Assembly (NCBI RefSeq): GCF_003018255.1
Contig: NZ_CP027440.1
Direction: 5' to 3' (one strand)
DNA: 64,000 nt
Source: Escherichia coli
GTDB lineage: Bacteria > Pseudomonadota > Gammaproteobacteria > Enterobacterales > Enterobacteriaceae
The notes beneath the pieces are model-generated. The model was not told the origin of the DNA. It worked only from the letters and a program-made list of their open reading frames with translations, and searched no databases. How positions within the stretch are numbered: position 1 is the stretch's first letter; each line of letters starts with the position of its first letter. The translations under genes were made by a program, and so were the position numbers. This document shows positions 1 to 32,185 of this stretch, piece after piece.

Positions 1-52
1 TATAGAAAATCAGATACAACAAAAATGGCAGGTAGATGATGTGAAGATAAAT

Positions 53-126
53 TGGAGCGGGCGAAGGGAATCGAACCCTCGTATAGAGCTTGGGAAGCTC
101 TCGTTCTACCATTGAACTACGCCCGC
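53..126 (-). tRNA. glyU: tRNA-Gly (anticodon CCC)
   Basis: Reverse complement reads GCGGGCGTAGTTCAATGGTAGAACGAGAGCTTCCCAAGCTCTATACGAGGGTTCGATTCCCTTCGCCCGCTCCA: acceptor stem pairs, T-arm GGTTCGATTCC, anticodon loop CTTCCCAAG, encoded CCA. Confidence 0.9.
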
Positions 127-204
127 TTCGAGATGCGTAAGGCATTATAAACCTTACGCTCTCCTTAGCAAGTGCCGCGCTGCTGACTGCTGATTAATTC
201 GCCA

Positions 205-981
205 TCAGCATTTTGGCTTGCTGCCCTGAGGCGGCAAGTAACGTAGCGGATCAATTGCCGTTGCACGGTAACGAATCTGGAAATGCAGGCGAACCGATGC
301 CGCATCAGTGCTCCCCATAGTGGCGATTTTTTGCCCAGCCTTCACGCTTTGCCCATTATTTACCAGCATCGTGTCATTATGGGCGTAAGCCGTAATGTAA
401 TCTTCACTGTGTTTAATCATGATGAGATTACCGTAGCCACGCAGCTGGTTGCCCACATACACCACCTTTCCTGCACCCGCGGCGTAAATAGGTGTACCCC
501 GTGGAGCTGAGATATCAATCCCTTTATTGCCGCCATCAGCTGTCGAATACGGCATGATAACTTTCCCTGTCGTTGGCCATAACCAACAACGTTGCCCTAC
601 TGGCGGCCAGGAAGATTTCGGTACTGCTGATGACGGTGTAACCGATGCGGTTTTGGTCGTTGATTTGGCGGTTGATTTACGTGTACTACTATTTTTCGCC
701 CCACCCAGTTTTAGTTTCTGACCAACTTCAATGGTGTAAGGGGGGGAAATGCCGTTCAGTCGCGCCAGCTCTTTTACGCTAGTTCCCGTGGTGCGCGAAA
801 TACGATATAGCGTATCCCCCCGTTTCACGGTGTAAACGGAGCCGGAATACGTTCCTGTATCGGATGATTTGCTACCCGAGCAGCCCGCCAAAAGCAGTCC
901 AATCGATAACAACATCACGATACCCAGAGATTTTTTATTCAGGCGTCCCGCACTCAAAATCTTTCCTCGCTTAAAAAACAA
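205..981 (-). CDS. ygeR: LysM-domain / M23-peptidase family lipoprotein
   Basis: ORF 258 aa; lipobox LLAGCSG, LysM-like segment YTVKRGDTLYRISRTTG, C-terminal M23-like region; exact start uncertain (K-12 protein recalled as slightly shorter). Confidence 0.8.
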   Translation of the reverse strand: MFFKRGKILSAGRLNKKSLGIVMLLSIGLLLAGCSGSKSSDTGTYSGSVYTVKRGDTLYRISRTTGTSVKELARLNGISPPYTIEVGQKLKLGGAKNSSTRKSTAKSTTKTASVTPSSAVPKSSWPPVGQRCWLWPTTGKVIMPYSTADGGNKGIDISAPRGTPIYAAGAGKVVYVGNQLRGYGNLIMIKHSEDYITAYAHNDTMLVNNGQSVKAGQKIATMGSTDAASVRLHFQIRYRATAIDPLRYLPPQGSKPKC

Positions 982-1411
982 GACGCCATATCATAGCAGC
1001 CAGCCTCTTGATACCCAATCTCTTGCTTCTGGAAAAACGCGGTAATAGAGAAAGAGGTTAATTTCATTTGGCAAAGGGAAGTATCATCAGCAAAATATTC
1101 ACTGTAGATGTATCGAATTTTCTGACTCATTTACCCTATTTCCCATCCTGATGCGTAATAATCCCAATTTATCACATTGATTTTATCGCCACTCATATTG
1201 ATACGTATCACTGCCCCTATTCAGGGTCCTGTTTCGTATCATATCTGTGTTTTTTTAACATCATCACACTTCCTTCCTCCCTTAACGCTTATCGTCGTTT
1301 CTGGCGTAAATCTTGCCTGCTTAGACTAAATCTTTGCCATAAGAACCAAATGTTCAAATCGAGGGGATTTCTATGGAAGCGCGGGAAGCAACCGCTACAG
1401 GTGAATCATGC

Positions 1412-3670
1412 ATGCGCGTAGATGCCATTGCTAAGGTCACCGGGCGGGCACGATATACTGACGATTATGTTATGGCGGGCATGTGTTACGCGAAATATGT
1501 ACGTAGCCCTATCGCACATGGTTATGCCATAAGTATTAATGATGAACAAGCCAGAAGTTTACCGGGCGTACTGGCGATTTTTACCTGGGAAGATGTGCCT
1601 GATATCCCATTCGCTACAGCTGGGCATGCCTGGACACTTGACGAAAACAAGCGCGATACCGCCGATCGCGCACTGCTAACTCGCCATGTTCGTCATCATG
1701 GTGACGCCGTTGCCATCGTCGTGGCCCGTGATGAACTCACGGCAGAAAAAGCGGCGCAATTGGTCAGCATTGAGTGGCAAGAATTACCCGTTATCACCAC
1801 GCCAGAAGCGGCGCTGGCAGATGACGCTGCACCAATCCATAACGGCGGCAATTTACTAAAACAAAGCTCGATGTCGACGGGTAATGTCCAACAAACAATC
1901 GATGCCGCCGATTACCAGGTGCAGGGGCACTATCAGACTCCCGTTATTCAACATTGTCATATGGAAAGCGTGACATCGCTGGCATGGATGGAGGATGACT
2001 CGCGAATTACCATCGTTTCCAGCACCCAGATCCCGCACATTGTTCGCCGTGTGGTTGGTCAGGCGCTGAATATTCCCTGGTCATGCGTACGAGTCATCAA
2101 ACCGTTTGTCGGTGGCGGTTTTGGTAATAAACAGGATGTACTGGAAGAGCCAATGGCGGCATTCCTGACCAGCAAGCTTGGCGGCATTCCGGTGAAAGTT
2201 TCCCTTAGCCGTGAAGAGTGTTTCCTCGCAACCCGTACCCGCCACGCTTTTACTATTGACGGGCAAATGGGCGTGAACCGCGACGGAACATTGAAAGGTT
2301 ATAGTCTGGATGTTCTGTCTAACACCGGCGCTTATGCATCTCACGGGCACTCCATCGCTTCTGCGGGCGGAAATAAAGTCGCTTACCTTTATCCTCGTTG
2401 TGCCTACGCTTACAGTTCAAAGACCTGCTATACCAACCTCCCCTCGGCTGGTGCGATGCGTGGTTATGGCGCGCCACAAGTCGTATTTGCCGTTGAGTCT
2501 ATGCTTGATGACGCCGCGACAGCGTTAGGTATTGATCCTGTTGAAATTCGTTTACGCAACGCCGCCCGCGAAGGAGATGCTAATCCGCTCACGGGCAAAC
2601 GTATTTACAGCGCAGGGTTGCCGGAGTGTCTTGAAAAAGGCCGGAAAATCTTTGAATGGGAAAAACGCCGTGCAGAGTGCCAGAACCAGCAAGGCAATTT
2701 ACGCCGCGGCGTTGGCGTCGCCTGTTTTAGCTACACCTCTAACACCTGGCCTGTCGGCGTAGAAATAGCAGGCGCGCGCCTGTTGATGAATCAGGATGGA
2801 ACCATCAACGTGCAAAGCGGCGCGACAGAAATCGGTCAGGGGGCCGACACCGTCTTCTCGCAAATGGTAGCAGAAACCGTGGGGGTTCCGGTCAGCGACG
2901 TTCGCGTTATTTCAACCCAAGATACCGACGTTACGCCGTTCGATCCCGGTGCATTTGCCTCACGCCAGAGCTATGTTGCCGCGCCTGCGCTGCGCAGTGC
3001 GGCACTGTTATTAAAGGAGAAAATCATCGCTCATGCCGCTGTCATGCTACATCAGTCAGCGATGAATCTTACCCTGATAAAAGGCCATATCGTGCTGGTT
3101 GAACGACCGGAAGAGCCATTAATGTCGTTAAAAGATTTGGCGATGGACGCCTTCTACCACCCTGAACGCGGCGGGCAGCTCTCTGCCGAAAGCTCCATCA
3201 AAACCACCACTAACCCACCAGCGTTTGGCTGTACCTTTGTTGATCTGACGGTCGATATTGCGCTGTGTAAAGTCACCATCAACCGCATCCTCAACGTTCA
3301 TGATTCGGGCCATATTCTTAATCCGCTACTGGCAGAAGGTCAGGTACACGGCGGAATGGGAATGGGCATTGGCTGGGCGCTATTTGAAGAGATGATCATT
3401 GATGCGAAAAGCGGCGTGGTCCGTAACCCCAATCTGCTGGATTACAAAATGCCGACCATGCCGGATCTGCCACAACTGGAAAGCGCGTTCGTCGAAATCA
3501 ATGAGCCGCAATCCGCATACGGACATAAGTCACTGGGTGAGCCACCAATAATTCCTGTTGCCGCTGCTATTCGTAACGCGGTGAAGATGGCTACCGGTGT
3601 TGCAATCAATACACTGCCGCTGACGCCAAAACGGTTATATGAAGAGTTCCATCTGGCAGGATTGATTTGA
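1412..3670 (+). CDS. xdhA: xanthine dehydrogenase, molybdenum-binding large subunit
   Basis: ORF in track 1373..3670; start trimmed to Met giving 752 aa (MRVDAIAKVTGRARY...), the length I recall for K-12 XdhA; aldehyde oxidase/xanthine dehydrogenase family. Confidence 0.9.
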   Translation: MRVDAIAKVTGRARYTDDYVMAGMCYAKYVRSPIAHGYAISINDEQARSLPGVLAIFTWEDVPDIPFATAGHAWTLDENKRDTADRALLTRHVRHHGDAVAIVVARDELTAEKAAQLVSIEWQELPVITTPEAALADDAAPIHNGGNLLKQSSMSTGNVQQTIDAADYQVQGHYQTPVIQHCHMESVTSLAWMEDDSRITIVSSTQIPHIVRRVVGQALNIPWSCVRVIKPFVGGGFGNKQDVLEEPMAAFLTSKLGGIPVKVSLSREECFLATRTRHAFTIDGQMGVNRDGTLKGYSLDVLSNTGAYASHGHSIASAGGNKVAYLYPRCAYAYSSKTCYTNLPSAGAMRGYGAPQVVFAVESMLDDAATALGIDPVEIRLRNAAREGDANPLTGKRIYSAGLPECLEKGRKIFEWEKRRAECQNQQGNLRRGVGVACFSYTSNTWPVGVEIAGARLLMNQDGTINVQSGATEIGQGADTVFSQMVAETVGVPVSDVRVISTQDTDVTPFDPGAFASRQSYVAAPALRSAALLLKEKIIAHAAVMLHQSAMNLTLIKGHIVLVERPEEPLMSLKDLAMDAFYHPERGGQLSAESSIKTTTNPPAFGCTFVDLTVDIALCKVTINRILNVHDSGHILNPLLAEGQVHGGMGMGIGWALFEEMIIDAKSGVVRNPNLLDYKMPTMPDLPQLESAFVEINEPQSAYGHKSLGEPPIIPVAAAIRNAVKMATGVAINTLPLTPKRLYEEFHLAGLI

Positions 3671-3680
3671 GGATAACATC

Positions 3681-4559
3681 ATGTTTGATTTTGCTTCTTA
3701 CCATCGCGCAGCAACCCTTGCCGATGCCATCAACCTGCTGGCTGACAACCCGCAGGCCAAACTGCTCGCCGGTGGCACTGACGTACTGATTCAGCTCCAC
3801 CATCACAATGACCGTTATCGCCATATTGTTGATATTCATAATCTGGCGGAGCTGCGGGGAATTACGCTGGCGGAAGATGGCTCACTACGTATCGGCTCTG
3901 CAACGACATTTACCCAGCTCATTGAAGATCCTGTAACTCAACGTCATCTCCCGGCGTTATGTGCTGCGGCCTCATCCATTGCCGGACCGCAGATCCGTAA
4001 CGTCGCTACCTACGGTGGAAATATTTGCAACGGTGCCACCAGCGCAGATTCTGCCACGCCAACGCTAATTTATGACGCGAAACTGGAGATCCACTCCCCG
4101 CGCGGTGTTCGTTTCGTCCCGATTAATGGCTTTCACACCGGGCCGGGCAAAGTGTCTCTTGAGCATGACGAAATCCTTGTCGCCTTTCATTTTCCGCCCC
4201 AGCCGAAAGAACACGCGGGCAGCGCGCATTTTAAATATGCCATGCGCGACGCAATGGATATTTCAACGATTGGCTGCGCCGCACATTGCCAACTGGATAA
4301 CGGCAATTTCAGCGAATTACGCCTGGCATTTGGTGTTGCCGCGCCAACGCCAATTCGCTGCCAACATGCCGAACAGACTGCACAAAATGCGCCATTAAAC
4401 CTGCAAACGCTGGAAGCCATCAGCGAATCAGTCCTGCAAGATGTCGCCCCGCGTTCGTCATGGCGGGCCAGTAAAGAGTTTCGTCTGCATCTCATCCAGA
4501 CGATGACCAAAAAAGTGATTAGCGAAGCCGTCGCCGCGGCGGGGGGAAAATTGCAATGA
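3681..4559 (+). CDS. xdhB: xanthine dehydrogenase, FAD-binding subunit
   Basis: 292 aa ORF directly downstream of xdhA; CO dehydrogenase flavoprotein-like; stop overlaps xdhC start (ATGA). Confidence 0.9.
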
Positions 4560-5035
4560 ATCACAGCGAAACAATTACCATCGAATGCACCATTAACGGG
4601 ATACCTTTTCAGCTTCACGCCGCACCAGGCACGCCGCTCTCGGAATTACTCCGCGAACAAGGACTGCTAAGTGTCAAACAAGGGTGCTGCGTGGGTGAAT
4701 GTGGTGCCTGTACGGTGCTGGTCGACGGCACAGCAATAGACAGTTGCTTATACCTTGCCGCCTGGGCTGAAGGAAAAGAGATCCGCACGCTGGAAGGTGA
4801 AGCGAAAGGCGGAAAACTTTCTCATGTTCAGCAGGCTTATGCGAAATCCGGCGCAGTGCAGTGCGGGTTTTGTACGCCGGGCCTGATTATGGCTACCACG
4901 GCAATGCTGGCGAAACCACGCGAGAAGCCATTAACCATTACGGAAATTCGTCGTGGACTGGCGGGAAATCTTTGTCGCTGCACGGGGTATCAGATGATTG
5001 TAAATACAGTTCTGGATTGCGAGAAAACGAAGTAA
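4556..5035 (+). CDS. xdhC: xanthine dehydrogenase, [2Fe-2S] iron-sulfur subunit
   Basis: 159 aa; 2Fe-2S cysteine motifs [11 protein letters not shown] and CGFCTPG. Confidence 0.9.
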
Positions 5036-5041
5036 AAGGAT

Positions 5042-5065
5042 ATCCGGCCTGAATTCAGGCCGGAT
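5042..5065. terminator. perfect hairpin between convergent xdhC and ygeV (likely bidirectional terminator)
   Basis: ATCCGGCCTGAATTCAGGCCGGAT is a perfect palindrome between the two convergent stops. Confidence 0.55.
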
Positions 5066-5074
5066 TCACTGAGG

Positions 5075-6853
5075 TTATGTGTTTAACAACTCATATTTCT
5101 TAATCTTGCGATAGAGCGTAGCAATGCCGATGCCCAGTTCATCAGCAACTTCCTTCTTGCTGTTATGACGTGAAAGCGCCTCGCGGATCATTTGCTTTTC
5201 CATCTCCTCCAGCGCCGTGCCGCCCGCATCATCGAGTGCCAGGTGCGCCTCACTGACCTCTGTTACATCACTTTGCTCCGTTGTGCCATTATTCAGCAGA
5301 TTTGGCGGCAATAGCGTGCTGTCGATAACTTCACCTGAAGGAACCACGTTAACCAGATATTCCATCAAATTGCTTAACTCGCGCAGGTTTCCGGGCCAAC
5401 GATGCTTACGCAATATTTCGACGACATCGGGAGCAATGCCCGGATAAACCGATCCCAGACGACGGGTATGCAGATGTAAAAAGTAATGCACCAGTAGTTC
5501 AATATCTTCCTGACGTTCACGCAGCGGTGGCAGAGTTATCGGGATAACATTAAGTCGGTAGAAGAGATCTTCGCGGAATTTACCTTCGGAAATGAACTGG
5601 GCCAAATTCTGGTTAGTTGCAGAAATGATGCGAATGTCGACTTGTATTGGGCTACTGGCACCAATCGGCAGAATTTCACGTGCCTCAATAGCGCGCAGTA
5701 ATTTAGCCTGCAACATTAATGGCATATCACCTATTTCATCGAGAAACAGCGTGCCCGTATTCGCCGCCTGAATCAACCCTGTTTTACCGTTGGCAGAAGC
5801 GCCAGTAAATGCGCCTTTAACATAACCGAACAGTTCGCTCTCCAGAAGCTGCTCCGGAATCGCGGCACAGTTGATAGCAATAAAAGGTTTATTCCGTCTT
5901 CCGCTCAACTTATGGATTGCACGGGCGACGACTTCTTTACCCGTGCCGCTTTCGCCAACCACCATAACGCTGGATGGGCTGGGTGCAATACGGCTAATGA
6001 GTCGTTTTAATTGCCGCATAACACGGCACTCGCCAACCAATTGTTCAATATGCGGTTCATCAGGTGCATTTGCTACAGAAAAACTGGTATGCGATTGGTG
6101 AAACGCCATTAAAAATAATTGTCGGCCCTGAATGTTATGCAATTGACCAATGATTAATTCACTTTTATCGTCCCACGAAACAATATGCTGCATATGTCCA
6201 TGGGTAAAATTACTCTCAAATGTTAATGGTCTGAAACGAACAGGTTTCCCAATAATATTATTTTGCACAACACCGAGTGTTTTTAAGGCAGTCTGATTAA
6301 CAAACTGAACCCGATTTTCGTCATCAACAACTAAAACGCCCTGATCCATATTATCGATCATGGTCGCGAATATTTTACTGATGTTATCTCCTGGCCCCTG
6401 ATCCTCCAGAAGTTTCGAAACAAAAATGGTGGATATATGGCGAACGTAATCAGAAAATTCGCGTAAATTATCACTGATATGTTCTTGTTGCTCGTGGGTA
6501 ACGGCAATCAAACTTATCACCCCAACACAACGATCCTGTAAAATGACAGGCGTACCCAGAAATGCTTTTTCGCGGCAATTTTCTTTACTATCGCAACCTT
6601 CACAAAGGGGATCGAAGCGAGACTGTGTCACAACTTTTTCAGTTTTCGTTTCCAGGACGTGGCGGAGCAGGCGTGAGTTGCCGCTCAACTGGCGACCAAG
6701 AAACTTCCCATACGCGCCCGTTCCGGCGACGCGACACAAGTTTTCATCAACGATCTCAACCTCAAGCTGCAAAACGCTGGCAAGCATTCTGGCAAAACGC
6801 TGAATTGTCGGTTGAATTTGCATCAATACTGACTGCGTAGTAGCAAGCTCCAT
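5075..6853 (-). CDS. ygeV: sigma-54-dependent transcriptional activator (bacterial enhancer-binding protein)
   Basis: 592 aa; Walker A GESGTGKE, sigma-54 contact motif GAFTGA, C-terminal HTH (IATLYRKIKKY), N-terminal sensory region. Confidence 0.9.
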   Translation of the reverse strand: MELATTQSVLMQIQPTIQRFARMLASVLQLEVEIVDENLCRVAGTGAYGKFLGRQLSGNSRLLRHVLETKTEKVVTQSRFDPLCEGCDSKENCREKAFLGTPVILQDRCVGVISLIAVTHEQQEHISDNLREFSDYVRHISTIFVSKLLEDQGPGDNISKIFATMIDNMDQGVLVVDDENRVQFVNQTALKTLGVVQNNIIGKPVRFRPLTFESNFTHGHMQHIVSWDDKSELIIGQLHNIQGRQLFLMAFHQSHTSFSVANAPDEPHIEQLVGECRVMRQLKRLISRIAPSPSSVMVVGESGTGKEVVARAIHKLSGRRNKPFIAINCAAIPEQLLESELFGYVKGAFTGASANGKTGLIQAANTGTLFLDEIGDMPLMLQAKLLRAIEAREILPIGASSPIQVDIRIISATNQNLAQFISEGKFREDLFYRLNVIPITLPPLRERQEDIELLVHYFLHLHTRRLGSVYPGIAPDVVEILRKHRWPGNLRELSNLMEYLVNVVPSGEVIDSTLLPPNLLNNGTTEQSDVTEVSEAHLALDDAGGTALEEMEKQMIREALSRHNSKKEVADELGIGIATLYRKIKKYELLNT

Positions 6854-7222
6854 AGCTTTACCTTCCAGACTTACTTAAAAGTCGATCATTGAAGACGTTG
6901 ATGGTTCATAGATCATGATGATATTAACTCAGGCGAAATTGGCTTTGATAAAAACATAAGATTTTTATCACTTTCTAATGAAATTATGGAAGAGATATCA
7001 CATTTCTATATCAATATGAGAATTACGGCGGTGAGTTTATCAAACTGAAGAGAGATCGCCTGTCCCTTTATCTTATTTCTGATACTTAGCAGCAAATAAA
7101 TAACGCGATAAAAAAAGCCAAACGTTTTCGTATTTTACAAACAACCAGAAGCTGGCATCAATTTGTGATCAACCCCACACATTATCCGTCAAATTAGTCT
7201 TTTGCAGCCCCGTGGATAATTC

Positions 7223-7238
7223 TGGCACACTTATTGTT
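7223..7238 (+). promoter_or_regulatory. candidate sigma-54 -24/-12 promoter upstream of ygeW
   Basis: TGGCACacttaTTGTT: exact -24 TGGCAC, correct spacing, -12 TTGT instead of TTGC; about 90 nt upstream of the ygeW ATG. Confidence 0.35.
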
Positions 7239-7328
7239 AGTCCCAGGTATAGCTGTGAAAACACCAATCACGTTGGCAAGTCACAGTGAAATAAACCACT
7301 TTGCCTGTCATTCCACTACCGGGACTTT

Positions 7329-8519
7329 ATGATGAAAACTGTTAATGAGCTGATTAAGGATATCAATTCGCTGACCTCTCACCTTCACGAGAAAGATTTT
7401 TTGTTAACGTGGGAACAGACGCCAGATGAACTGAAACAAGTACTGGACGTTGCCGCAGCATTAAAAGCACTGCGTGCTGAAAACATCTCAACCAAAGTCT
7501 TTAATAGTGGATTAGGTATTTCCGTATTCCGCGACAACTCCACCCGTACCCGCTTCTCTTATGCTTCCGCGCTTAACCTGCTCGGCCTTGCACAGCAAGA
7601 TCTCGACGAAGGCAAATCACAAATCGCTCACGGCGAAACCGTGCGTGAAACCGCCAATATGATCTCCTTCTGCGCCGACGCTATTGGTATTCGCGACGAT
7701 ATGTATCTGGGCGCAGGCAACGCCTATATGCGTGAAGTTGGCGCTGCACTTGATGACGGTTACAAGCAGGGTGTGCTGCCGCAACGTCCGGCTTTAGTGA
7801 ACCTGCAATGCGATATTGACCACCCGACTCAGTCAATGGCTGACCTGGCATGGTTACGTGAACACTTTGGTTCACTGGAAAACCTGAAAGGTAAAAAAAT
7901 CGCCATGACCTGGGCCTACTCCCCAAGCTATGGCAAACCGCTCTCTGTACCACAAGGCATCATCGGTCTGATGACTCGCTTCGGTATGGATGTCACCCTG
8001 GCCCATCCGGAAGGCTACGACCTGATCCCGGATGTCGTTGAAGTCGCTAAAAACAATGCTAAAGCCTCCGGCGGTAGCTTCCGTCAGGTCACCAGCATGG
8101 AAGAAGCCTTCAAAGACGCAGACATCGTTTATCCGAAGTCATGGGCACCTTACAAAGTGATGGAAGAGCGTACTGAATTGCTGCGTGCGAACGATCACGA
8201 AGGCTTAAAAGCACTGGAAAAACAGTGTCTGGCACAGAACGCGCAACACAAAGACTGGCATTGTACTGAAGAGATGATGGAACTGACCCGTGATGGCGAA
8301 GCCCTGTACATGCACTGCCTGCCAGCTGATATCAGCGGCGTATCCTGCAAAGAAGGTGAAGTGACTGAAGGCGTATTCGAAAAATACCGTATCGCTACCT
8401 ACAAAGAAGCCAGCTGGAAGCCTTATATCATCGCCGCGATGATCCTGTCCCGTAAATACGCCAAACCAGGTGCACTGCTCGAGCAACTGCTGAAAGAAGC
8501 GCAAGAACGCGTGAAATAA
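7329..8519 (+). CDS. ygeW: carbamoyltransferase (ornithine/aspartate transcarbamylase fold; recalled as oxamate carbamoyltransferase)
   Basis: 396 aa; carbamoyl-phosphate binding motif STRTR (NSTRTRFSYASA). Confidence 0.85.
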   Translation: MMKTVNELIKDINSLTSHLHEKDFLLTWEQTPDELKQVLDVAAALKALRAENISTKVFNSGLGISVFRDNSTRTRFSYASALNLLGLAQQDLDEGKSQIAHGETVRETANMISFCADAIGIRDDMYLGAGNAYMREVGAALDDGYKQGVLPQRPALVNLQCDIDHPTQSMADLAWLREHFGSLENLKGKKIAMTWAYSPSYGKPLSVPQGIIGLMTRFGMDVTLAHPEGYDLIPDVVEVAKNNAKASGGSFRQVTSMEEAFKDADIVYPKSWAPYKVMEERTELLRANDHEGLKALEKQCLAQNAQHKDWHCTEEMMELTRDGEALYMHCLPADISGVSCKEGEVTEGVFEKYRIATYKEASWKPYIIAAMILSRKYAKPGALLEQLLKEAQERVK

Positions 8520-8576: not shown

Positions 8577-9773
8577 ATGTCCGTTTTCTCATTGAAGATT
8601 GATATCGCCGATAACAAATTTTTCAACGGCGAAACATCACCGCTTTTTTCGCAAAGCCAGGCAAAACTGGCACGCCAGTTCCACCAGAAAATTGCTGGTT
8701 ATCACCCAACACCGCTTTGTGCGCTGGACGATCTCGCAAACCTGTTTGGTGTAAAGAAAATTCTCGTCAAAGACGAATCAAAACGATTCGGTCTGAACGC
8801 CTTCAAAATGCTTGGCGGTGCGTACGCCATCGCTCAATTATTGTGTGAAAAATATCATCTTGATATCGAAACGCTGTCATTTGAGCACCTGAAAAATGCC
8901 ATCGGCGAAAAAATGACTTTCGCGACTACCACCGACGGCAACCACGGGCGCGGTGTGGCATGGGCAGCACAGCAACTCGGACAGAATGCGGTGATTTACA
9001 TGCCGAAAGGTTCTGCTCAGGAACGCGTTGACGCCATTCTAAACCTCGGTGCCGAGTGCATCGTCACGGATATGAACTATGACGATACCGTTCGCCTGAC
9101 CATGCAACACGCGCAGCAGCACGGCTGGGAAGTGGTACAGGACACGGCATGGGAAGGTTACACCAAAATCCCAACCTGGATCATGCAAGGCTACGCAACA
9201 CTGGCGGATGAAGCCGTCGAGCAAATGCGTGAAATGGGCGTCACCCCGACACACGTTCTGCTGCAAGCCGGTGTCGGTGCAATGGCCGGTGGTGTGCTGG
9301 GTTATCTGGTCGACGTCTATAGCCCGCAAAATCTGCACAGCATTATTGTTGAACCTGACAAAGCTGACTGTATTTATCGCTCCGGCGTCAAAGGCGACAT
9401 CGTCAACGTTGGCGGTGATATGGCCACCATCATGGCGGGCCTGGCCTGCGGCGAACCTAACCCACTGGGCTGGGAAATCCTACGTAACTGCGCCACCCAA
9501 TTCATCTCCTGCCAGGACAGCGTTGCCGCATTAGGTATGCGCGTGCTGGGTAATCCGTATGGCAACGACCCGCGCATCATCTCCGGTGAATCCGGCGCTG
9601 TCGGTTTGGGCGTTCTCGCAGCGGTTCATTATCACCCGCAACGTCAAAGCCTGATGGAAAAACTGGCGCTGAACAAAGATGCCGTGGTGCTGGTTATCAG
9701 CACTGAAGGCGACACCGACGTGAAGCACTACCGCGAAGTTGTCTGGGAAGGCAAACACGCTGTAGCACCTTAA
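8577..9773 (+). CDS. ygeX: PLP-dependent 2,3-diaminopropionate ammonia-lyase
   Basis: 398 aa; fold-type II PLP enzyme lysine motif (NAFKMLGGAY). Confidence 0.85.
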   Translation: MSVFSLKIDIADNKFFNGETSPLFSQSQAKLARQFHQKIAGYHPTPLCALDDLANLFGVKKILVKDESKRFGLNAFKMLGGAYAIAQLLCEKYHLDIETLSFEHLKNAIGEKMTFATTTDGNHGRGVAWAAQQLGQNAVIYMPKGSAQERVDAILNLGAECIVTDMNYDDTVRLTMQHAQQHGWEVVQDTAWEGYTKIPTWIMQGYATLADEAVEQMREMGVTPTHVLLQAGVGAMAGGVLGYLVDVYSPQNLHSIIVEPDKADCIYRSGVKGDIVNVGGDMATIMAGLACGEPNPLGWEILRNCATQFISCQDSVAALGMRVLGNPYGNDPRIISGESGAVGLGVLAAVHYHPQRQSLMEKLALNKDAVVLVISTEGDTDVKHYREVVWEGKHAVAP

Positions 9774-16677: not shown

Positions 16678-16692
16678 TATCATAATGATAAG
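16678..16692. promoter_or_regulatory. perfect 7-1-7 palindrome TTATCAT-A-ATGATAA upstream of ygfK
   Basis: Read directly from the sequence; further TGATAA/TTATCAC-type half-sites nearby (16723-16730 GTGATAAA). Confidence 0.3.
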
Positions 16693-16859
16693 GAATCACT
16701 GATTTTGAGAAAAGAGAAAAAGTGATAAATGGGCTGGCAATAATAATTTTCAGGAGTGATTTTAATTCTCATTTGGCACCTGTGAGTTCATTCACAAAAA
16801 GCCATTAAGTTTCGAGCCGCCTCACATTTTTTTATATTTCCCGCCAAACCTGGCAAGAG

Positions 16860-16875
16860 TGGTGCGATTGTTGCT
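16860..16875 (+). promoter_or_regulatory. candidate sigma-54 -24/-12 promoter upstream of ygfK
   Basis: TGGtgCGattgTTGCT: GG-N10-GC spacing with TTGC -12 element; about 75 nt upstream of the ygfK ATG. Confidence 0.35.
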
Positions 16876-20048: not shown

Positions 20049-21377
20049 ATGTTGATTCTGAAGAATGTCACCGCAGTGCAGTTACACCCAGCGAAAGTGC
20101 AGGAAGGCGTTGATATCGCCATCGAAAATGATGTGATTGTCGCTATCGGCGATGCCCTGACGCAACGCTACCCCGATGCCAGCTACAAAGAGATGCATGG
20201 TCGGATTGTGATGCCAGGAATTGTCTGCTCGCACAACCATTTTTACTCGGGGCTGTCCCGCGGAATTATGGCAAACATCGCCCCCTGCCCGGATTTCATC
20301 TCAACGCTGAAAAATCTCTGGTGGCGACTCGATCGCGCCCTTGATGAAGAGTCGCTCTATTACAGCGGACTGATTTGTTCCCTGGAAGCGATTAAGGGCG
20401 GATGTACATCGGTTATCGATCACCATGCCTCTCCGGCGTATATCGACGGGTCGCTCTCCACATTGCGCAACGCATTTTTAAAAGTTGGCCTGCGCGCGAT
20501 GACCTGTTTTGAAACTACTGACCGTAACAACGGTATCAAAGAGTTGCAGGAAGGTGTAGAAGAAAACATCCGCTTCGCCCGTCAGATTGATGATGCGAAG
20601 AAAGCGGCAACTGAACCGTATCTGGTAGAGGCTCATATTGGTGCTCACGCGCCGTTTACTGTGCCGGATGCCGGTCTGGAAATGCTGCGTGAGGCCGTGA
20701 AAGCCACAGGCCGTGGTTTACATATTCACGCTGCGGAAGACCTTTACGATGTTTCCCATAGTCATCACTGGTACGGCAAAGATCTGCTGGCACGATTAGC
20801 GCAATTCGATCTCATCGACAGCAAAACGCTGGTCGCTCATGGGCTTTATCTGTCTAAAGACGACATCGCGTTGCTCAATCAGCGTGATGCATTCCTGGTG
20901 CATAACGCCCGTTCAAACATGAACAACCATGTCGGCTACAACCATCATCTTTGCGACATCCGCAATCTGGCGTTGGGTACGGACGGTATTGGTTCAGATA
21001 TGTTTGAAGAGATGAAATTTGCCTTCTTTAAACATCGCGATGCGGGTGGTCCGCTGTGGCCTGACAGCTTTGCCAAAGCTCTGGCTAACGGCAACGAACT
21101 GATGAGCCGCAACTTTGGCGCGAAATTTGGCCTTCTGGAAGCCGGTTACAAAGCCGATTTAACCATTTGCGATTACAACTCGCCGACGCCGCTGCTGGCA
21201 GACAATATCGCCGGGCATATCGCTTTCGGTATGGGCTCAGGCAGCGTTCACAGCGTGATGGTCAATGGTGTGATGGTCTATGAAGACCGTCAGTTTAACT
21301 TCGATTGCGATTCCATTTATGCGCAAGCCAGAAAAGCCGCTGCCAGTATGTGGCGTCGGATGGATGCGCTGGCATAA
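20049..21377 (+). CDS. ssnA: amidohydrolase-superfamily aminohydrolase (chlorohydrolase-like)
   Basis: 442 aa; metal-binding HxH (CSHNHF); starts 3 nt after the ygfK stop. Confidence 0.85.
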   Translation: MLILKNVTAVQLHPAKVQEGVDIAIENDVIVAIGDALTQRYPDASYKEMHGRIVMPGIVCSHNHFYSGLSRGIMANIAPCPDFISTLKNLWWRLDRALDEESLYYSGLICSLEAIKGGCTSVIDHHASPAYIDGSLSTLRNAFLKVGLRAMTCFETTDRNNGIKELQEGVEENIRFARQIDDAKKAATEPYLVEAHIGAHAPFTVPDAGLEMLREAVKATGRGLHIHAAEDLYDVSHSHHWYGKDLLARLAQFDLIDSKTLVAHGLYLSKDDIALLNQRDAFLVHNARSNMNNHVGYNHHLCDIRNLALGTDGIGSDMFEEMKFAFFKHRDAGGPLWPDSFAKALANGNELMSRNFGAKFGLLEAGYKADLTICDYNSPTPLLADNIAGHIAFGMGSGSVHSVMVNGVMVYEDRQFNFDCDSIYAQARKAAASMWRRMDALA

Positions 21378-22207: not shown

Positions 22208-25074
22208 TCATCCACTTTACTTTAAATGGCACGCCCCAGGAGCTAACCGTTAATCCTGGTGAAAACGTGCAAAAGCTGTTGTTTAACATGGGAATGCACT
22301 CTGTACGCAACAGCGATGATGGCTTTGGGTTTGCCGGTTCTGACGCAATTATCTTTAACGGTAATATCGTTAACGCGTCCTTGCTTATCGCCGCACAGTT
22401 AGAGAAGGCAGATATTCGTACCGCAGAATCTCTGGGCAAATGGAATGAGTTAAGTCTGGTTCAACAGGCCATGGTTGATGTTGGCGTGGTGCAGTCTGGT
22501 TATAACGATCCAGCTGCGGCTCTGATTATCACCGATCTTCTCGATCGCATCGACGCACCTACCCGCGAAGAGATCGACGACGCGCTCTCAGGTCTGTTTA
22601 GCCGCGATGCTGGCTGGCAGCAATACTATCAGGTCATTGAACTGGCGGTTGCACGTAAAAATAATCCGCAGGCCACCATTGATATCGCTCCGACTTTCCG
22701 TGACGACCTTGAAGTCATTGGCAAGCATTATCCTAAAACTGATGCCGCGAAAATGGTGCAGGCGAAACCCTGCTATGTTGAAGATCGCGTAACGGCTGAC
22801 GCCTGCGTCATTAAAATGTTACGTAGCCCACACGCTCACGCACTGATTACTCATCTGGATGTCAGCAAAGCTGAAGCCTTACCGGGCGTCGTTCACGTTA
22901 TTACTCACCTGAATTGCCCGGATATTTACTATACCCCGGGTGGTCAGAGCGCACCGGAACCGTCACCGCTTGACCGCCGAATGTTCGGCAAGAAAATGCG
23001 TCACGTCGGCGATCGCGTTGCTGCGGTCGTCGCTGAAAGTGAAGACATTGCGCTCGAAGCACTGAAGCTCATCGACGTTGAATATGAAGTGCTTAAGCCG
23101 GTAATGTCGATTGACGAGGCAATGGCGGAAGATGCGCCTGTCGTGCACGATGAACCGGTGGTGTATGTTGCTGGTGCACCAGATACTCTGGAGGAAGATA
23201 ACTGTCATGCAGCCCAGCGCGGCGAGCATATGATCATCAACTTCCCGATCGGTTCTCGCCCACGCAAAAATATCGCTGCCAGTATTCATGGTCATATTGG
23301 TGATATGGACAAAGGCTTTGCCGATGCCGATGTGATCATTGAGCGAACCTATAACTCAACGCAGGCGCAGCAGTGCCCGACTGAAACACATATCTGCTTT
23401 ACCCGTATGGACGGCGATCGTCTGGTGATCCACGCCTCCACCCAGGTACCATGGCACTTACGCCGCCAGGTCGCGCGCCTCGTGGGCATGAAACAACATA
23501 AAGTTCATGTCATTAAAGAACGTGTAGGCGGCGGTTTTGGCTCTAAACAGGACATCCTGCTGGAAGAAGTGTGCGCCTGGGCAACTTGCGTGACCGGGCG
23601 TCCGGTACTTTTCCGCTACACCCGTGAAGAAGAGTTTATTGCTAACACCTCTCGTCACGTAGCGAAAGTCACCGTCAAACTGGGCGCGAAAAAAGATGGT
23701 CGCCTGACGGCAGTGAAGATGGATTTCCGCGCCAACACTGGTCCTTACGGTAACCACTCACTCACCGTACCGTGTAACGGACCGGCGCTGTCGCTGCCGT
23801 TATATCCATGCGATAACGTCGATTTCCAGGTCACCACCTACTACAGCAACATTTGCCCAAATGGTGCTTATCAGGGTTATGGCGCACCGAAAGGTAACTT
23901 CGCTATCACCATGGCGTTAGCGGAACTGGCGGAACAATTGCAGATCGACCAACTGGAAATTATTGAACGTAATCGTGTACACGAAGGGCAGGAGTTGAAA
24001 ATTCTCGGTGCGATTGGTGAAGGTAAAGCGCCGACATCCGTTCCTTCCGCCGCCAGCTGCGCACTGGAAGAGATCCTGCGTCAGGGTCGCGAGATGATCC
24101 AATGGTCTTCACCAAAACCGCAAAATGGTGACTGGCACATCGGTCGCGGCGTCGCCATTATCATGCAGAAATCAGGGATCCCAGATATCGATCAGGCTAA
24201 CTGCATGATCAAACTGGAATCAGACGGTACCTTTATCGTTCATTCTGGCGGTGCGGATATTGGTACTGGTTTGGATACTGTGGTGACGAAACTGGCAGCA
24301 GAAGTGCTGCACTGCCCCCCGCAGGACGTGCATGTTATCTCCGGTGATACCGATCATGCGTTGTTTGATAAAGGCGCATATGCCTCGTCCGGTACTTGCT
24401 TCTCGGGTAACGCTGCGCGTTTGGCAGCGGAAAATCTGCGGGAGAAAATCCTGTTCCACGGCGCGCAAATGTTGGGTGAGCCAGTGGCAGATGTTCAACT
24501 AGCAACGCCGGGCGTCGTTCGCGGCAAGAAAGGCGAAGTTAGTTTCGGAGAGATAGCCCATAAAGGCGAAACCGGCACCGGCTTTGGTTCACTGGTGGGA
24601 ACTGGCAGTTATATCACGCCTGATTTCGCCTTCCCGTATGGCGCAAACTTCGCTGAAGTTGCCGTCAACACGCGTACGGGTGAAATCCGCCTGGATAAAT
24701 TCTACGCCTTGCTGGACTGCGGTACACCGGTCAATCCAGAGTTAGCGCTGGGACAAATCTACGGTGCCACCCTGCGTGCTATCGGCCACAGTATGAGCGA
24801 AGAGATCATTTATGACGCCGAAGGTCACCCGTTAACGCGTGATTTACGCAGTTACGGCGCACCGAAAATTGGTGACATTCCGCGTGATTTCCGCGCTGTG
24901 CTGGTGCCGAGCGACGATAAAGTCGGCCCATTCGGGGCGAAATCGATCTCGGAAATCGGTGTAAATGGCGCCGCTCCGGCGATTGCTACCGCAATTCACG
25001 ATGCCTGCGGCATCTGGTTACGCGAATGGCATTTCACACCGGAGAAAATACTCACCGCGCTGGAAAAAATATAA
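22204..25074 (+). CDS. xdhD: molybdenum hydroxylase large subunit (xanthine dehydrogenase family) with N-terminal extension
   Basis: 956 aa; Mo-pterin hydroxylase family with a Cys-poor ferredoxin-like N-terminal region. Confidence 0.85.
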   Translation: MIIHFTLNGTPQELTVNPGENVQKLLFNMGMHSVRNSDDGFGFAGSDAIIFNGNIVNASLLIAAQLEKADIRTAESLGKWNELSLVQQAMVDVGVVQSGYNDPAAALIITDLLDRIDAPTREEIDDALSGLFSRDAGWQQYYQVIELAVARKNNPQATIDIAPTFRDDLEVIGKHYPKTDAAKMVQAKPCYVEDRVTADACVIKMLRSPHAHALITHLDVSKAEALPGVVHVITHLNCPDIYYTPGGQSAPEPSPLDRRMFGKKMRHVGDRVAAVVAESEDIALEALKLIDVEYEVLKPVMSIDEAMAEDAPVVHDEPVVYVAGAPDTLEEDNCHAAQRGEHMIINFPIGSRPRKNIAASIHGHIGDMDKGFADADVIIERTYNSTQAQQCPTETHICFTRMDGDRLVIHASTQVPWHLRRQVARLVGMKQHKVHVIKERVGGGFGSKQDILLEEVCAWATCVTGRPVLFRYTREEEFIANTSRHVAKVTVKLGAKKDGRLTAVKMDFRANTGPYGNHSLTVPCNGPALSLPLYPCDNVDFQVTTYYSNICPNGAYQGYGAPKGNFAITMALAELAEQLQIDQLEIIERNRVHEGQELKILGAIGEGKAPTSVPSAASCALEEILRQGREMIQWSSPKPQNGDWHIGRGVAIIMQKSGIPDIDQANCMIKLESDGTFIVHSGGADIGTGLDTVVTKLAAEVLHCPPQDVHVISGDTDHALFDKGAYASSGTCFSGNAARLAAENLREKILFHGAQMLGEPVADVQLATPGVVRGKKGEVSFGEIAHKGETGTGFGSLVGTGSYITPDFAFPYGANFAEVAVNTRTGEIRLDKFYALLDCGTPVNPELALGQIYGATLRAIGHSMSEEIIYDAEGHPLTRDLRSYGAPKIGDIPRDFRAVLVPSDDKVGPFGAKSISEIGVNGAAPAIATAIHDACGIWLREWHFTPEKILTALEKI

Positions 25075-31819: not shown

Positions 31820-32101
31820 TTGCATCCCTTTCATTTAATGAGTTATGTCTTCTCAAATTTCGCGATGCAATAAATGGGCATGTATTAGGTAGCATGGCCG
31901 ATTTAATTATAATTTTGCGACTGAGTTCAAATTATTGCCCCTCAATCTATGCAGCTTTCATTATTTCAACATTGCCGATCAAAAGAATGCTATCCAGATA
32001 AAAACGATTAAATGCGAGAGTGCGACATGCCAGAATGATTAATGAAATATCAATATGAGAAAATTACAGATAATTCCATTGTCAGGTTCTCTTCTCATTT
32101 T

Positions 32102-32116: not shown

Positions 32117-32169
32117 ATTATGTGATTACCTCCGCAATTCCTGTCTCTAACTCCCCTTCCTCGCAAAAC

Positions 32170-32185
32170 TGGCACTCCACGAGCA
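32170..32185 (+). promoter_or_regulatory. weak candidate sigma-54 -24/-12 element upstream of uacT
   Basis: TGGCACtccacgaGCA: exact -24, correct GG-N10-GC spacing, -12 lacks the TT. Confidence 0.25.

Follow-up and report, generated by a model that had tools for sequence, protein, structure and literature searches.

The sigma-54 promoter of the Escherichia coli xdhABC operon and a shared upstream dyad box that may bind the enhancer-binding protein YgeV

The glnAp2 promoter and its activator NtrC form the classical enhancer-dependent system, and the region upstream of xdhA in Escherichia coli resembles it in its -24/-12 element, in a pair of candidate dyad sites for an activator that share one helical face over 100 bp upstream, in having no obligatory IHF site and in a closed complex that would persist until ATP-dependent remodelling. 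It differs in the sequence of the boxes and in a -24 element that reads TGGCGT rather than TGGCAC in all 28 orthologous loci compared here, while the presumed activator, YgeV, carries GAF-like and PAS sensory domains and, unlike NtrC, no phosphorylated receiver domain. By gene set, the xdhABC cluster can also be likened to the DioR regulon of the Clostridiales, in a different phylum, where an enhancer-binding protein and sigma-54 control homologous dpaL, ygeW-ygfK-ssnA-ygeY and yqeB genes; of the DioR motif the published account says no more than that it differs from other motifs (Nie et al. 2019, PMC6615313). The nearest described system is xdhAp, the promoter of xdhABC in K-12, and it is this very element: K-12 MG1655 and the window (the whole 64,000-nucleotide stretch of E. 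coli DNA analysed here) do not differ in the 17-mer, in either upstream box or in the leader, and the intergenic region as a whole is 98% identical. Because promoter and boxes are the same, promoter data from K-12 transfer to the window, which comes from a non-K-12 strain and differs only in a RefSeq xdhA start 39 nt further upstream and in nothing else of substance. A 601-bp segment around the motif is matched in 5,411 of 5,426 complete E. coli genomes, at 100% in several non-K-12 strains.

The candidate sigma-54 promoter that a sequence-only reading of the window had placed upstream of xdhA is this known xdhAp, predicted in 2001, supported by expression data in 2009 and by ChIP-seq in 2015, so that the observation was correct but not new. 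PRECISE-1K credits the sigma-54 promoters of xdhABC and ygeWXY to Reitzer & Schneider 2001. Expression of xdhA rose 4.9-fold 5 min after induction of sigma-54 and was 2.1-fold lower when rpoN was deleted, in a study that gives the same promoter sequence at -110 to -93 (Zhao 2009, PMC2831329). The exact 17-mer is the sigma-54 ChIP-seq site OS29, classed as intergenic and sense, upstream of xdhA, with a fold above threshold of 11, a peak centred 6 bp from the middle of the motif and a mark for experimental confirmation in EcoCyc (Bonocora 2015, PMC4591121); the ChIP signal was present although the operon is silent in the minimal glucose medium used. A discordant result comes from genomic SELEX with the sigma-54 holoenzyme, which recovered the ygeV/ygeW spacer and not the xdhA site. 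A full-text literature search for the 17-mer returned, among experimental papers, exactly these two. Sigma-54 occupancy and rpoN-dependent expression, which answer two of the checks that the sequence-only reading proposed for its candidate, have thus been shown by others, and together with the conservation described below they bear the promoter out. We consider it very likely that the element is the sigma-54 promoter of xdhABC, opened by an enhancer-binding ATPase, most probably YgeV, which we propose acts from the upstream dyad boxes.

In the window the -24/-12 element, CTGGCGTAAATCTTGCC, occupies 1301-1317 on the plus strand, with GG at 1303-1304 and GC at 1315-1316. Positions 1298-1319 read tttCTGGCGTAAATCTTGCCtg, in which TGGC lies at 1302-1305 and TTGC at 1313-1316, and TGGCGT-AAATC-TTGC at 1302-1316 falls in the canonical TGGCAC-N5-TTGC register, the G of GG standing 11 positions from the G of GC as the sigma-54 frame demands. 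The frame, the exact spacing and the TTGC -12 element claimed earlier are therefore all in place; the 17-mer then quoted, cTGGCGTAAATCTTGCc, is present as written and only its start had slipped by a base, position 1302 being the T of TGGC. The distance of about 95 nt to the xdhA ATG is likewise right for the K-12-type start at 1412, which the end of the motif precedes by 95 nt, whereas the start used for this strain by RefSeq and PGAP, at 1373, is only 55 nt away. We scored the window with a 17-column sigma-54 matrix built from 130 of the 135 ChIP-seq motifs of Bonocora 2015, the five sites in the window's own region being left out. The xdhA site reaches 15.4 bits, the best match in the 64 kb on either strand, and stands at the 70th percentile of the 130 training sites, within the range of bound sites.

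The same element is deeply conserved. Searching representative genomes for XdhA gave 32 loci. Upstream DNA was usable in 28, whose XdhA proteins are 70-98% identical and which come from 11 genera: Escherichia, Citrobacter, Kluyvera, Atlantibacter, Buttiauxella, Hafnia, Enterobacillus, Yokenella, Klebsiella (Klebsiella indica), Trabulsiella and Pluralibacter. In every one of the 28 the orthologous element is the top matrix match in the 500 bp upstream of xdhA (13.5-16.6 bits), with the K-12-type ATG 77-108 nt further on. No locus departs from TGGCGT or TTGC, the non-consensus GT that replaces the AC of TGGCAC included, while the spacer and the flanks vary; in an alignment of 19 sequences, 10 of the 17 columns of the element are invariant, against 0 of 31 in the upstream flank and 0 of 42 in the downstream flank.

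The gene context is taken from the RefSeq record of an identical strain, whose coordinates are those of the window. It reads tRNA-Gly, actS (minus strand), xdhA, xdhB, xdhC, ygeV (minus strand), ygeW, dpaL, ygeY and hyuA, continuing to ygfK, xdhD, ygfT and uacT. Open reading frames, the RefSeq annotation and synteny in the orthologous loci define the xdhA-xdhB-xdhC operon at 1373-5035 (+), downstream of the sigma-54 promoter. The placement of ygeV directly downstream of xdhC was also read correctly: xdhC ends at 5035, ygeV runs convergently at 5075-6853 (-), and the gap is 39 bp.

Further upstream, two 13-bp dyad boxes, both candidate YgeV enhancer sites, lie at 1170-1182 on the plus strand (box 1, TATCACATTGATT, centred at about -152, with 7 of 13 columns invariant in 19 sequences) and at 1191-1203 on the minus strand (box 2, which in its minus-strand reading is TATCAATATGAGT, centred at about -131, with 6 of 13 columns invariant). 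Their consensus is TATCA-N3-TGAKA. The two centres are 21 bp apart, which places the boxes on one face of the helix; if they bind an activator, both would lie where the enhancer of a sigma-54 promoter is expected (~80-250 bp upstream). The pair is present in 28/28 loci at about -151 to -154 (box 1, in 27 of the 28) and -129 to -132, with an offset of ~20 bp, or two helical turns, in Hafnia; box positions are held within ~2 bp even where the DNA between boxes and promoter has decayed to random-level identity.

Nor is the box peculiar to xdhA. The window contains 11 copies of TATCA-N3-TGA where 1.4 would be expected, a count reached in 0 of 100 shuffles, and nine of the 11 copies sit in the four intergenic regions with a sigma-54 ChIP site, those of xdhA, ygeV/ygeW, ygfK and ygfT/uacT. 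The boxes at ygeW (7009-7021) and ygfT/uacT (32048-32060) share one 13-mer exactly, TATCAATATGAGA, which matches xdhA box 2 at 12 of 13 bases. A point against reading the box as an activator site is that its 5-bp arms are only 8 bp apart from centre to centre, closer than in the sites of most characterised enhancer-binding proteins. Our search of the open-access literature, with subscription papers and curated databases outside its scope, found no description of the box motif. This shared, position-locked box is the sole item of the present analysis that is possibly new, the promoter itself being known. From its placement we infer that the pair at xdhA is the YgeV enhancer, and more generally we are inclined, with some reservation, to read TATCA-N3-TGAKA as the hitherto undefined DNA-binding site of YgeV/IsrR, of which xdhA would have two phased copies and ygeW, ygfK and ygfT/uacT one or two each, at about -200 to -235.

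A further conserved block, a T-tract followed by ATCACA at 1250-1269 (+), is centred at about -66; it has five invariant columns, with TCAC invariant in the 19 sequences, amid neighbouring sequence at random-level identity. An intrinsic bend and a half-site for the CRP/FNR family are candidate readings of it. A full CRP/FNR site was considered for this block and rejected, as only the half-site TCACA fits. We also considered IHF for the two boxes and rejected it, as the TTR part of the IHF consensus is missing and the conserved TGA lies outside the IHF motif. Between the boxes and the promoter (1204-1300) there is no match to the IHF consensus WATCAANNNNTTR with up to one mismatch, and the sole near-match overlaps box 1.

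YgeV shows every hallmark of an enhancer-binding protein. Its 592 residues include a Sigma54_activat domain (PF00158, E 2.5e-70) followed by AAA_lid_14 (PF25601) and a C-terminal Fis-type helix-turn-helix, HTH_8 (PF02954), with Walker A GESGTGK at residue 300 and GAFTGA at residue 347. Pfam finds a PAS domain (E 1.7e-6) and a faint GAF match (E 0.03) at the N-terminus, and no Response_reg match in the protein. YgeV was called an 'orphan RR' when it was renamed IsrR (PMC9426417); we reject the reading as a response regulator, since the N-terminal receiver domain is absent and the label accordingly does not fit. The helix-turn-helix AADELGIGIATLYRKIKKYEL is invariant across genera even as whole-protein identity falls to 68%, and ygeV follows xdhC in most of the orthologous loci. 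Activation of xdhABC by YgeV is a standing hypothesis, for which PRECISE-1K cites Reitzer & Schneider 2001; in the open-access literature we found no direct test of YgeV binding at xdhA or of the effect of a ygeV mutation on xdhA. The earlier suggestion that xdhABC may be under enhancer-dependent control through ygeV gains indirect support from this domain content and from the presence of the dyad box at the four sigma-54 regions around ygeV, both of which are consistent with it at the level of sequence.

Taken together, these elements suggest a mechanism in which sigma-54 RNA polymerase would bind the -24 GG/-12 GC element and wait there as a closed complex even while the operon is silent. 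Transcription would start near 1328 only after an enhancer-binding ATPase, most probably YgeV (IsrR), had remodelled that complex. To this end YgeV would oligomerise on the two phased dyad boxes at about -152 and -131 and contact the polymerase by DNA looping, possibly aided by the T-tract/ATCACA block at about -66, whereupon ATP hydrolysis acting through its GAFTGA loop would open the promoter and allow xdhABC to be transcribed. The shared box at ygeW, ygfK and ygfT/uacT would join the purine/uric-acid catabolic cluster into a single YgeV/sigma-54 regulon.

The sister promoters OS30-OS32 resemble xdhA in having TATCA-N3-TGAKA upstream, in lying in one chromosomal cluster and in belonging to one iModulon, the 'YgeV iModulon' of PRECISE-1K, in which xdhABC co-varies with ygeW, ygfK, ygfT and uacT. 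They differ in that their boxes lie farther upstream, at about -199 to -235 as against -152 and -131. The ygeW promoter, CTGGCACACTTATTGTT at 7222-7238 (+), is ChIP-seq site OS30, has boxes at 7009-7021 and 7038-7050, and is conserved in 14 sequences with a box held at -235. The ygfK promoter at 16859-16875 (+) is OS31, scores 14.2 bits and has a palindromic box, TATCATAATGATA, at 16678-16690 (about -202). The ygfT site at 31866-31882 (-), OS32 in K-12, is weak, and its box, TATCAATATGAGA at 32048-32060 (about -199), is held in common with the divergent uacT. This ygfT site reads CATGCCCATTTATTGCA here (5.3 bits) and TATGCCCGTTTATTGCA in K-12, and is weak in both strains. Upstream of uacT by 70 nt, CTGGCACTCCACGAGCA at 32169-32185 (+) has GG and GC in sigma-54 register with a poor -12 element (5.9 bits); the ygfT box, which lies about -142 from this uacT candidate site, may serve uacT as well, acting bidirectionally.

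An alternative to YgeV is that a true sigma-54 promoter is served by some other activator, such as NtrC under nitrogen limitation, with the boxes binding another factor. In its favour, the genomic SELEX study reported an NtrC peak between xdhB and xdhC, within the operon itself. Expression of xdhA also responded within 5 min to overproduction of sigma-54 when no purines had been added, so that some activator was active, or bypassed, in ordinary medium. Moreover, no ygeV-like gene lies within 10 kb of xdhABC in three loci from Kluyvera and one each from Hafnia and Enterobacillus, and these three genera nonetheless retain the xdhA sigma-54 promoter and both boxes. Set against this, the xdhA boxes are unlike the NtrC site, TGCACC-N5-GGTGCA, the same box stands at all four sigma-54 sites surrounding ygeV, xdhABC belongs to the YgeV iModulon, and the helix-turn-helix of YgeV shares the invariance of the box. 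We judge an activator other than YgeV to be improbable and continue to prefer YgeV.

Whether the element fires at all bears on a second alternative, in which it is an 'orphan' site that holds polymerase and is never productive, with xdhABC transcribed from another promoter. A sigma-54 binding site need not be a productive promoter, and many of the 135 ChIP sites are perhaps not promoters (Bonocora 2015, PMC4591121). The start of xdhA is a predicted one, for we found no mapped start in the open-access literature, and xdhABC is almost never expressed under laboratory conditions. Following the Bonocora convention (motif centre + 19), the predicted start falls at 1328 (+) (K-12 NC_000913.3 ~3000261), in agreement with the 84 nt given from predicted start to K-12 xdhA ATG (PMC4591121, Table 1 footnotes; 1412 - 84 = 1328). 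Yet the element is intergenic and sense, with this predicted start 45-84 nt from the start codon; 11 genera retain it along with enhancer-like boxes whose distance from it is fixed; xdhA expression depends on rpoN; and a sigma-70 scan of 940-1420 gave a single weak match at chance level and no credible promoter. A site that never fires thus seems very unlikely to us, and we retain the reading of a productive sigma-54 promoter.

The two distances to the start codon reflect two annotations. An AGGGGA Shine-Dalgarno sequence and an ATG at 1373 (together 1360-1375, +) are kept in nearly all genera, PGAP uses this start, and across genera the stretch from 1373 to 1412 changes in length by multiples of three. 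From this conservation, the true xdhA start is probably the one at 1373, 13 codons upstream of the K-12 annotation, which would give a protein of 765 aa rather than 752 aa. The predicted xdhA leader shows no unusual folding (z-score 0.38), and the only Rfam family in 1-8000 is tRNA-Gly.

How much the motif alone can carry is best seen from its background frequency. The loose pattern TGGC-N7-TTGC occurs six times in the window against 4.3 expected, and such a count, not being enriched, is uninformative. In first-order Markov simulations with the dinucleotide statistics of the window, matches of at least 15.4 bits arise 1.1 times per simulated 64 kb, with at least one in 63% of simulations; since about one such match is expected in any random 64 kb, a match by itself proves nothing, and the xdhA site is raised above chance by its position (intergenic and sense), its conservation and its published in vivo sigma-54 occupancy. 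These frequencies are all that speaks for a chance match to a low-information motif, a reading to which we give next to no credence and which is already refuted by the conservation of the element in 11 genera with randomised flanks and by the published ChIP data (OS29), with rpoN-dependent xdhA expression also against it.

The cluster of xdh, ygeW, ygfK, ygfT and uacT is the gut-bacterial route of anaerobic purine and uric-acid breakdown, of relevance to gout, and a 2025 paper describes the regulation of these genes as poorly understood. Published work ties urate/purines, indole and ethanol each to the regulon, and any of them may be its signal. If our reading is true, the box would be the cis-regulatory code of the regulon through which enterobacteria degrade purines and uric acid anaerobically. 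Knowledge of a YgeV box and its fixed geometry would then offer a direct handle on the inducing signal, would allow urate-degrading probiotics to be engineered without promoter replacement, and would permit prediction of the regulon in other Enterobacterales.

Several smaller observations concern the neighbourhood of these sites. The ygeW promoter has conserved CRP-like and PurR-like sites, which xdhA lacks. In the ygeV-ygeW spacer, the block AGCCAAACGTTTTCGT at 7116-7131 resembles the PurR operator, ACGCAAACGTTTTCTT, and is kept in all genera but Buttiauxella; a 2015 computational paper places ygeW within a putative PurR regulon cluster. The conserved CRP-like site, TGTGATCAACCCCACA at 7164-7179, is centred at about -77.5 from the predicted ygeW start, and the 2025 paper speaks of a native Crp site there. 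Two strong matches to the sigma-54 matrix lie inside genes, in xdhD at 23926-23942 (+) (CTGGCGGAACAATTGCA, 14.1 bits) and in ssnA at 20787-20803 (+) (13.5 bits), and are absent from the high-stringency sigma-54 ChIP-seq tables consulted. A palindrome with perfect arms that matches the box, TATCATCTTGATA, lies inside the coding region of dpaL (ygeX) at 8853-8865. Among the orthologous loci, Kluyvera has a second xdhA paralogue downstream (31% identical), and in Citrobacter sp. NCU1 (locus L034, 6701-11235) a YgeV paralogue, 39% identical and with a similar helix-turn-helix, stands beside dpaL-like and ygeY-like genes near actS.
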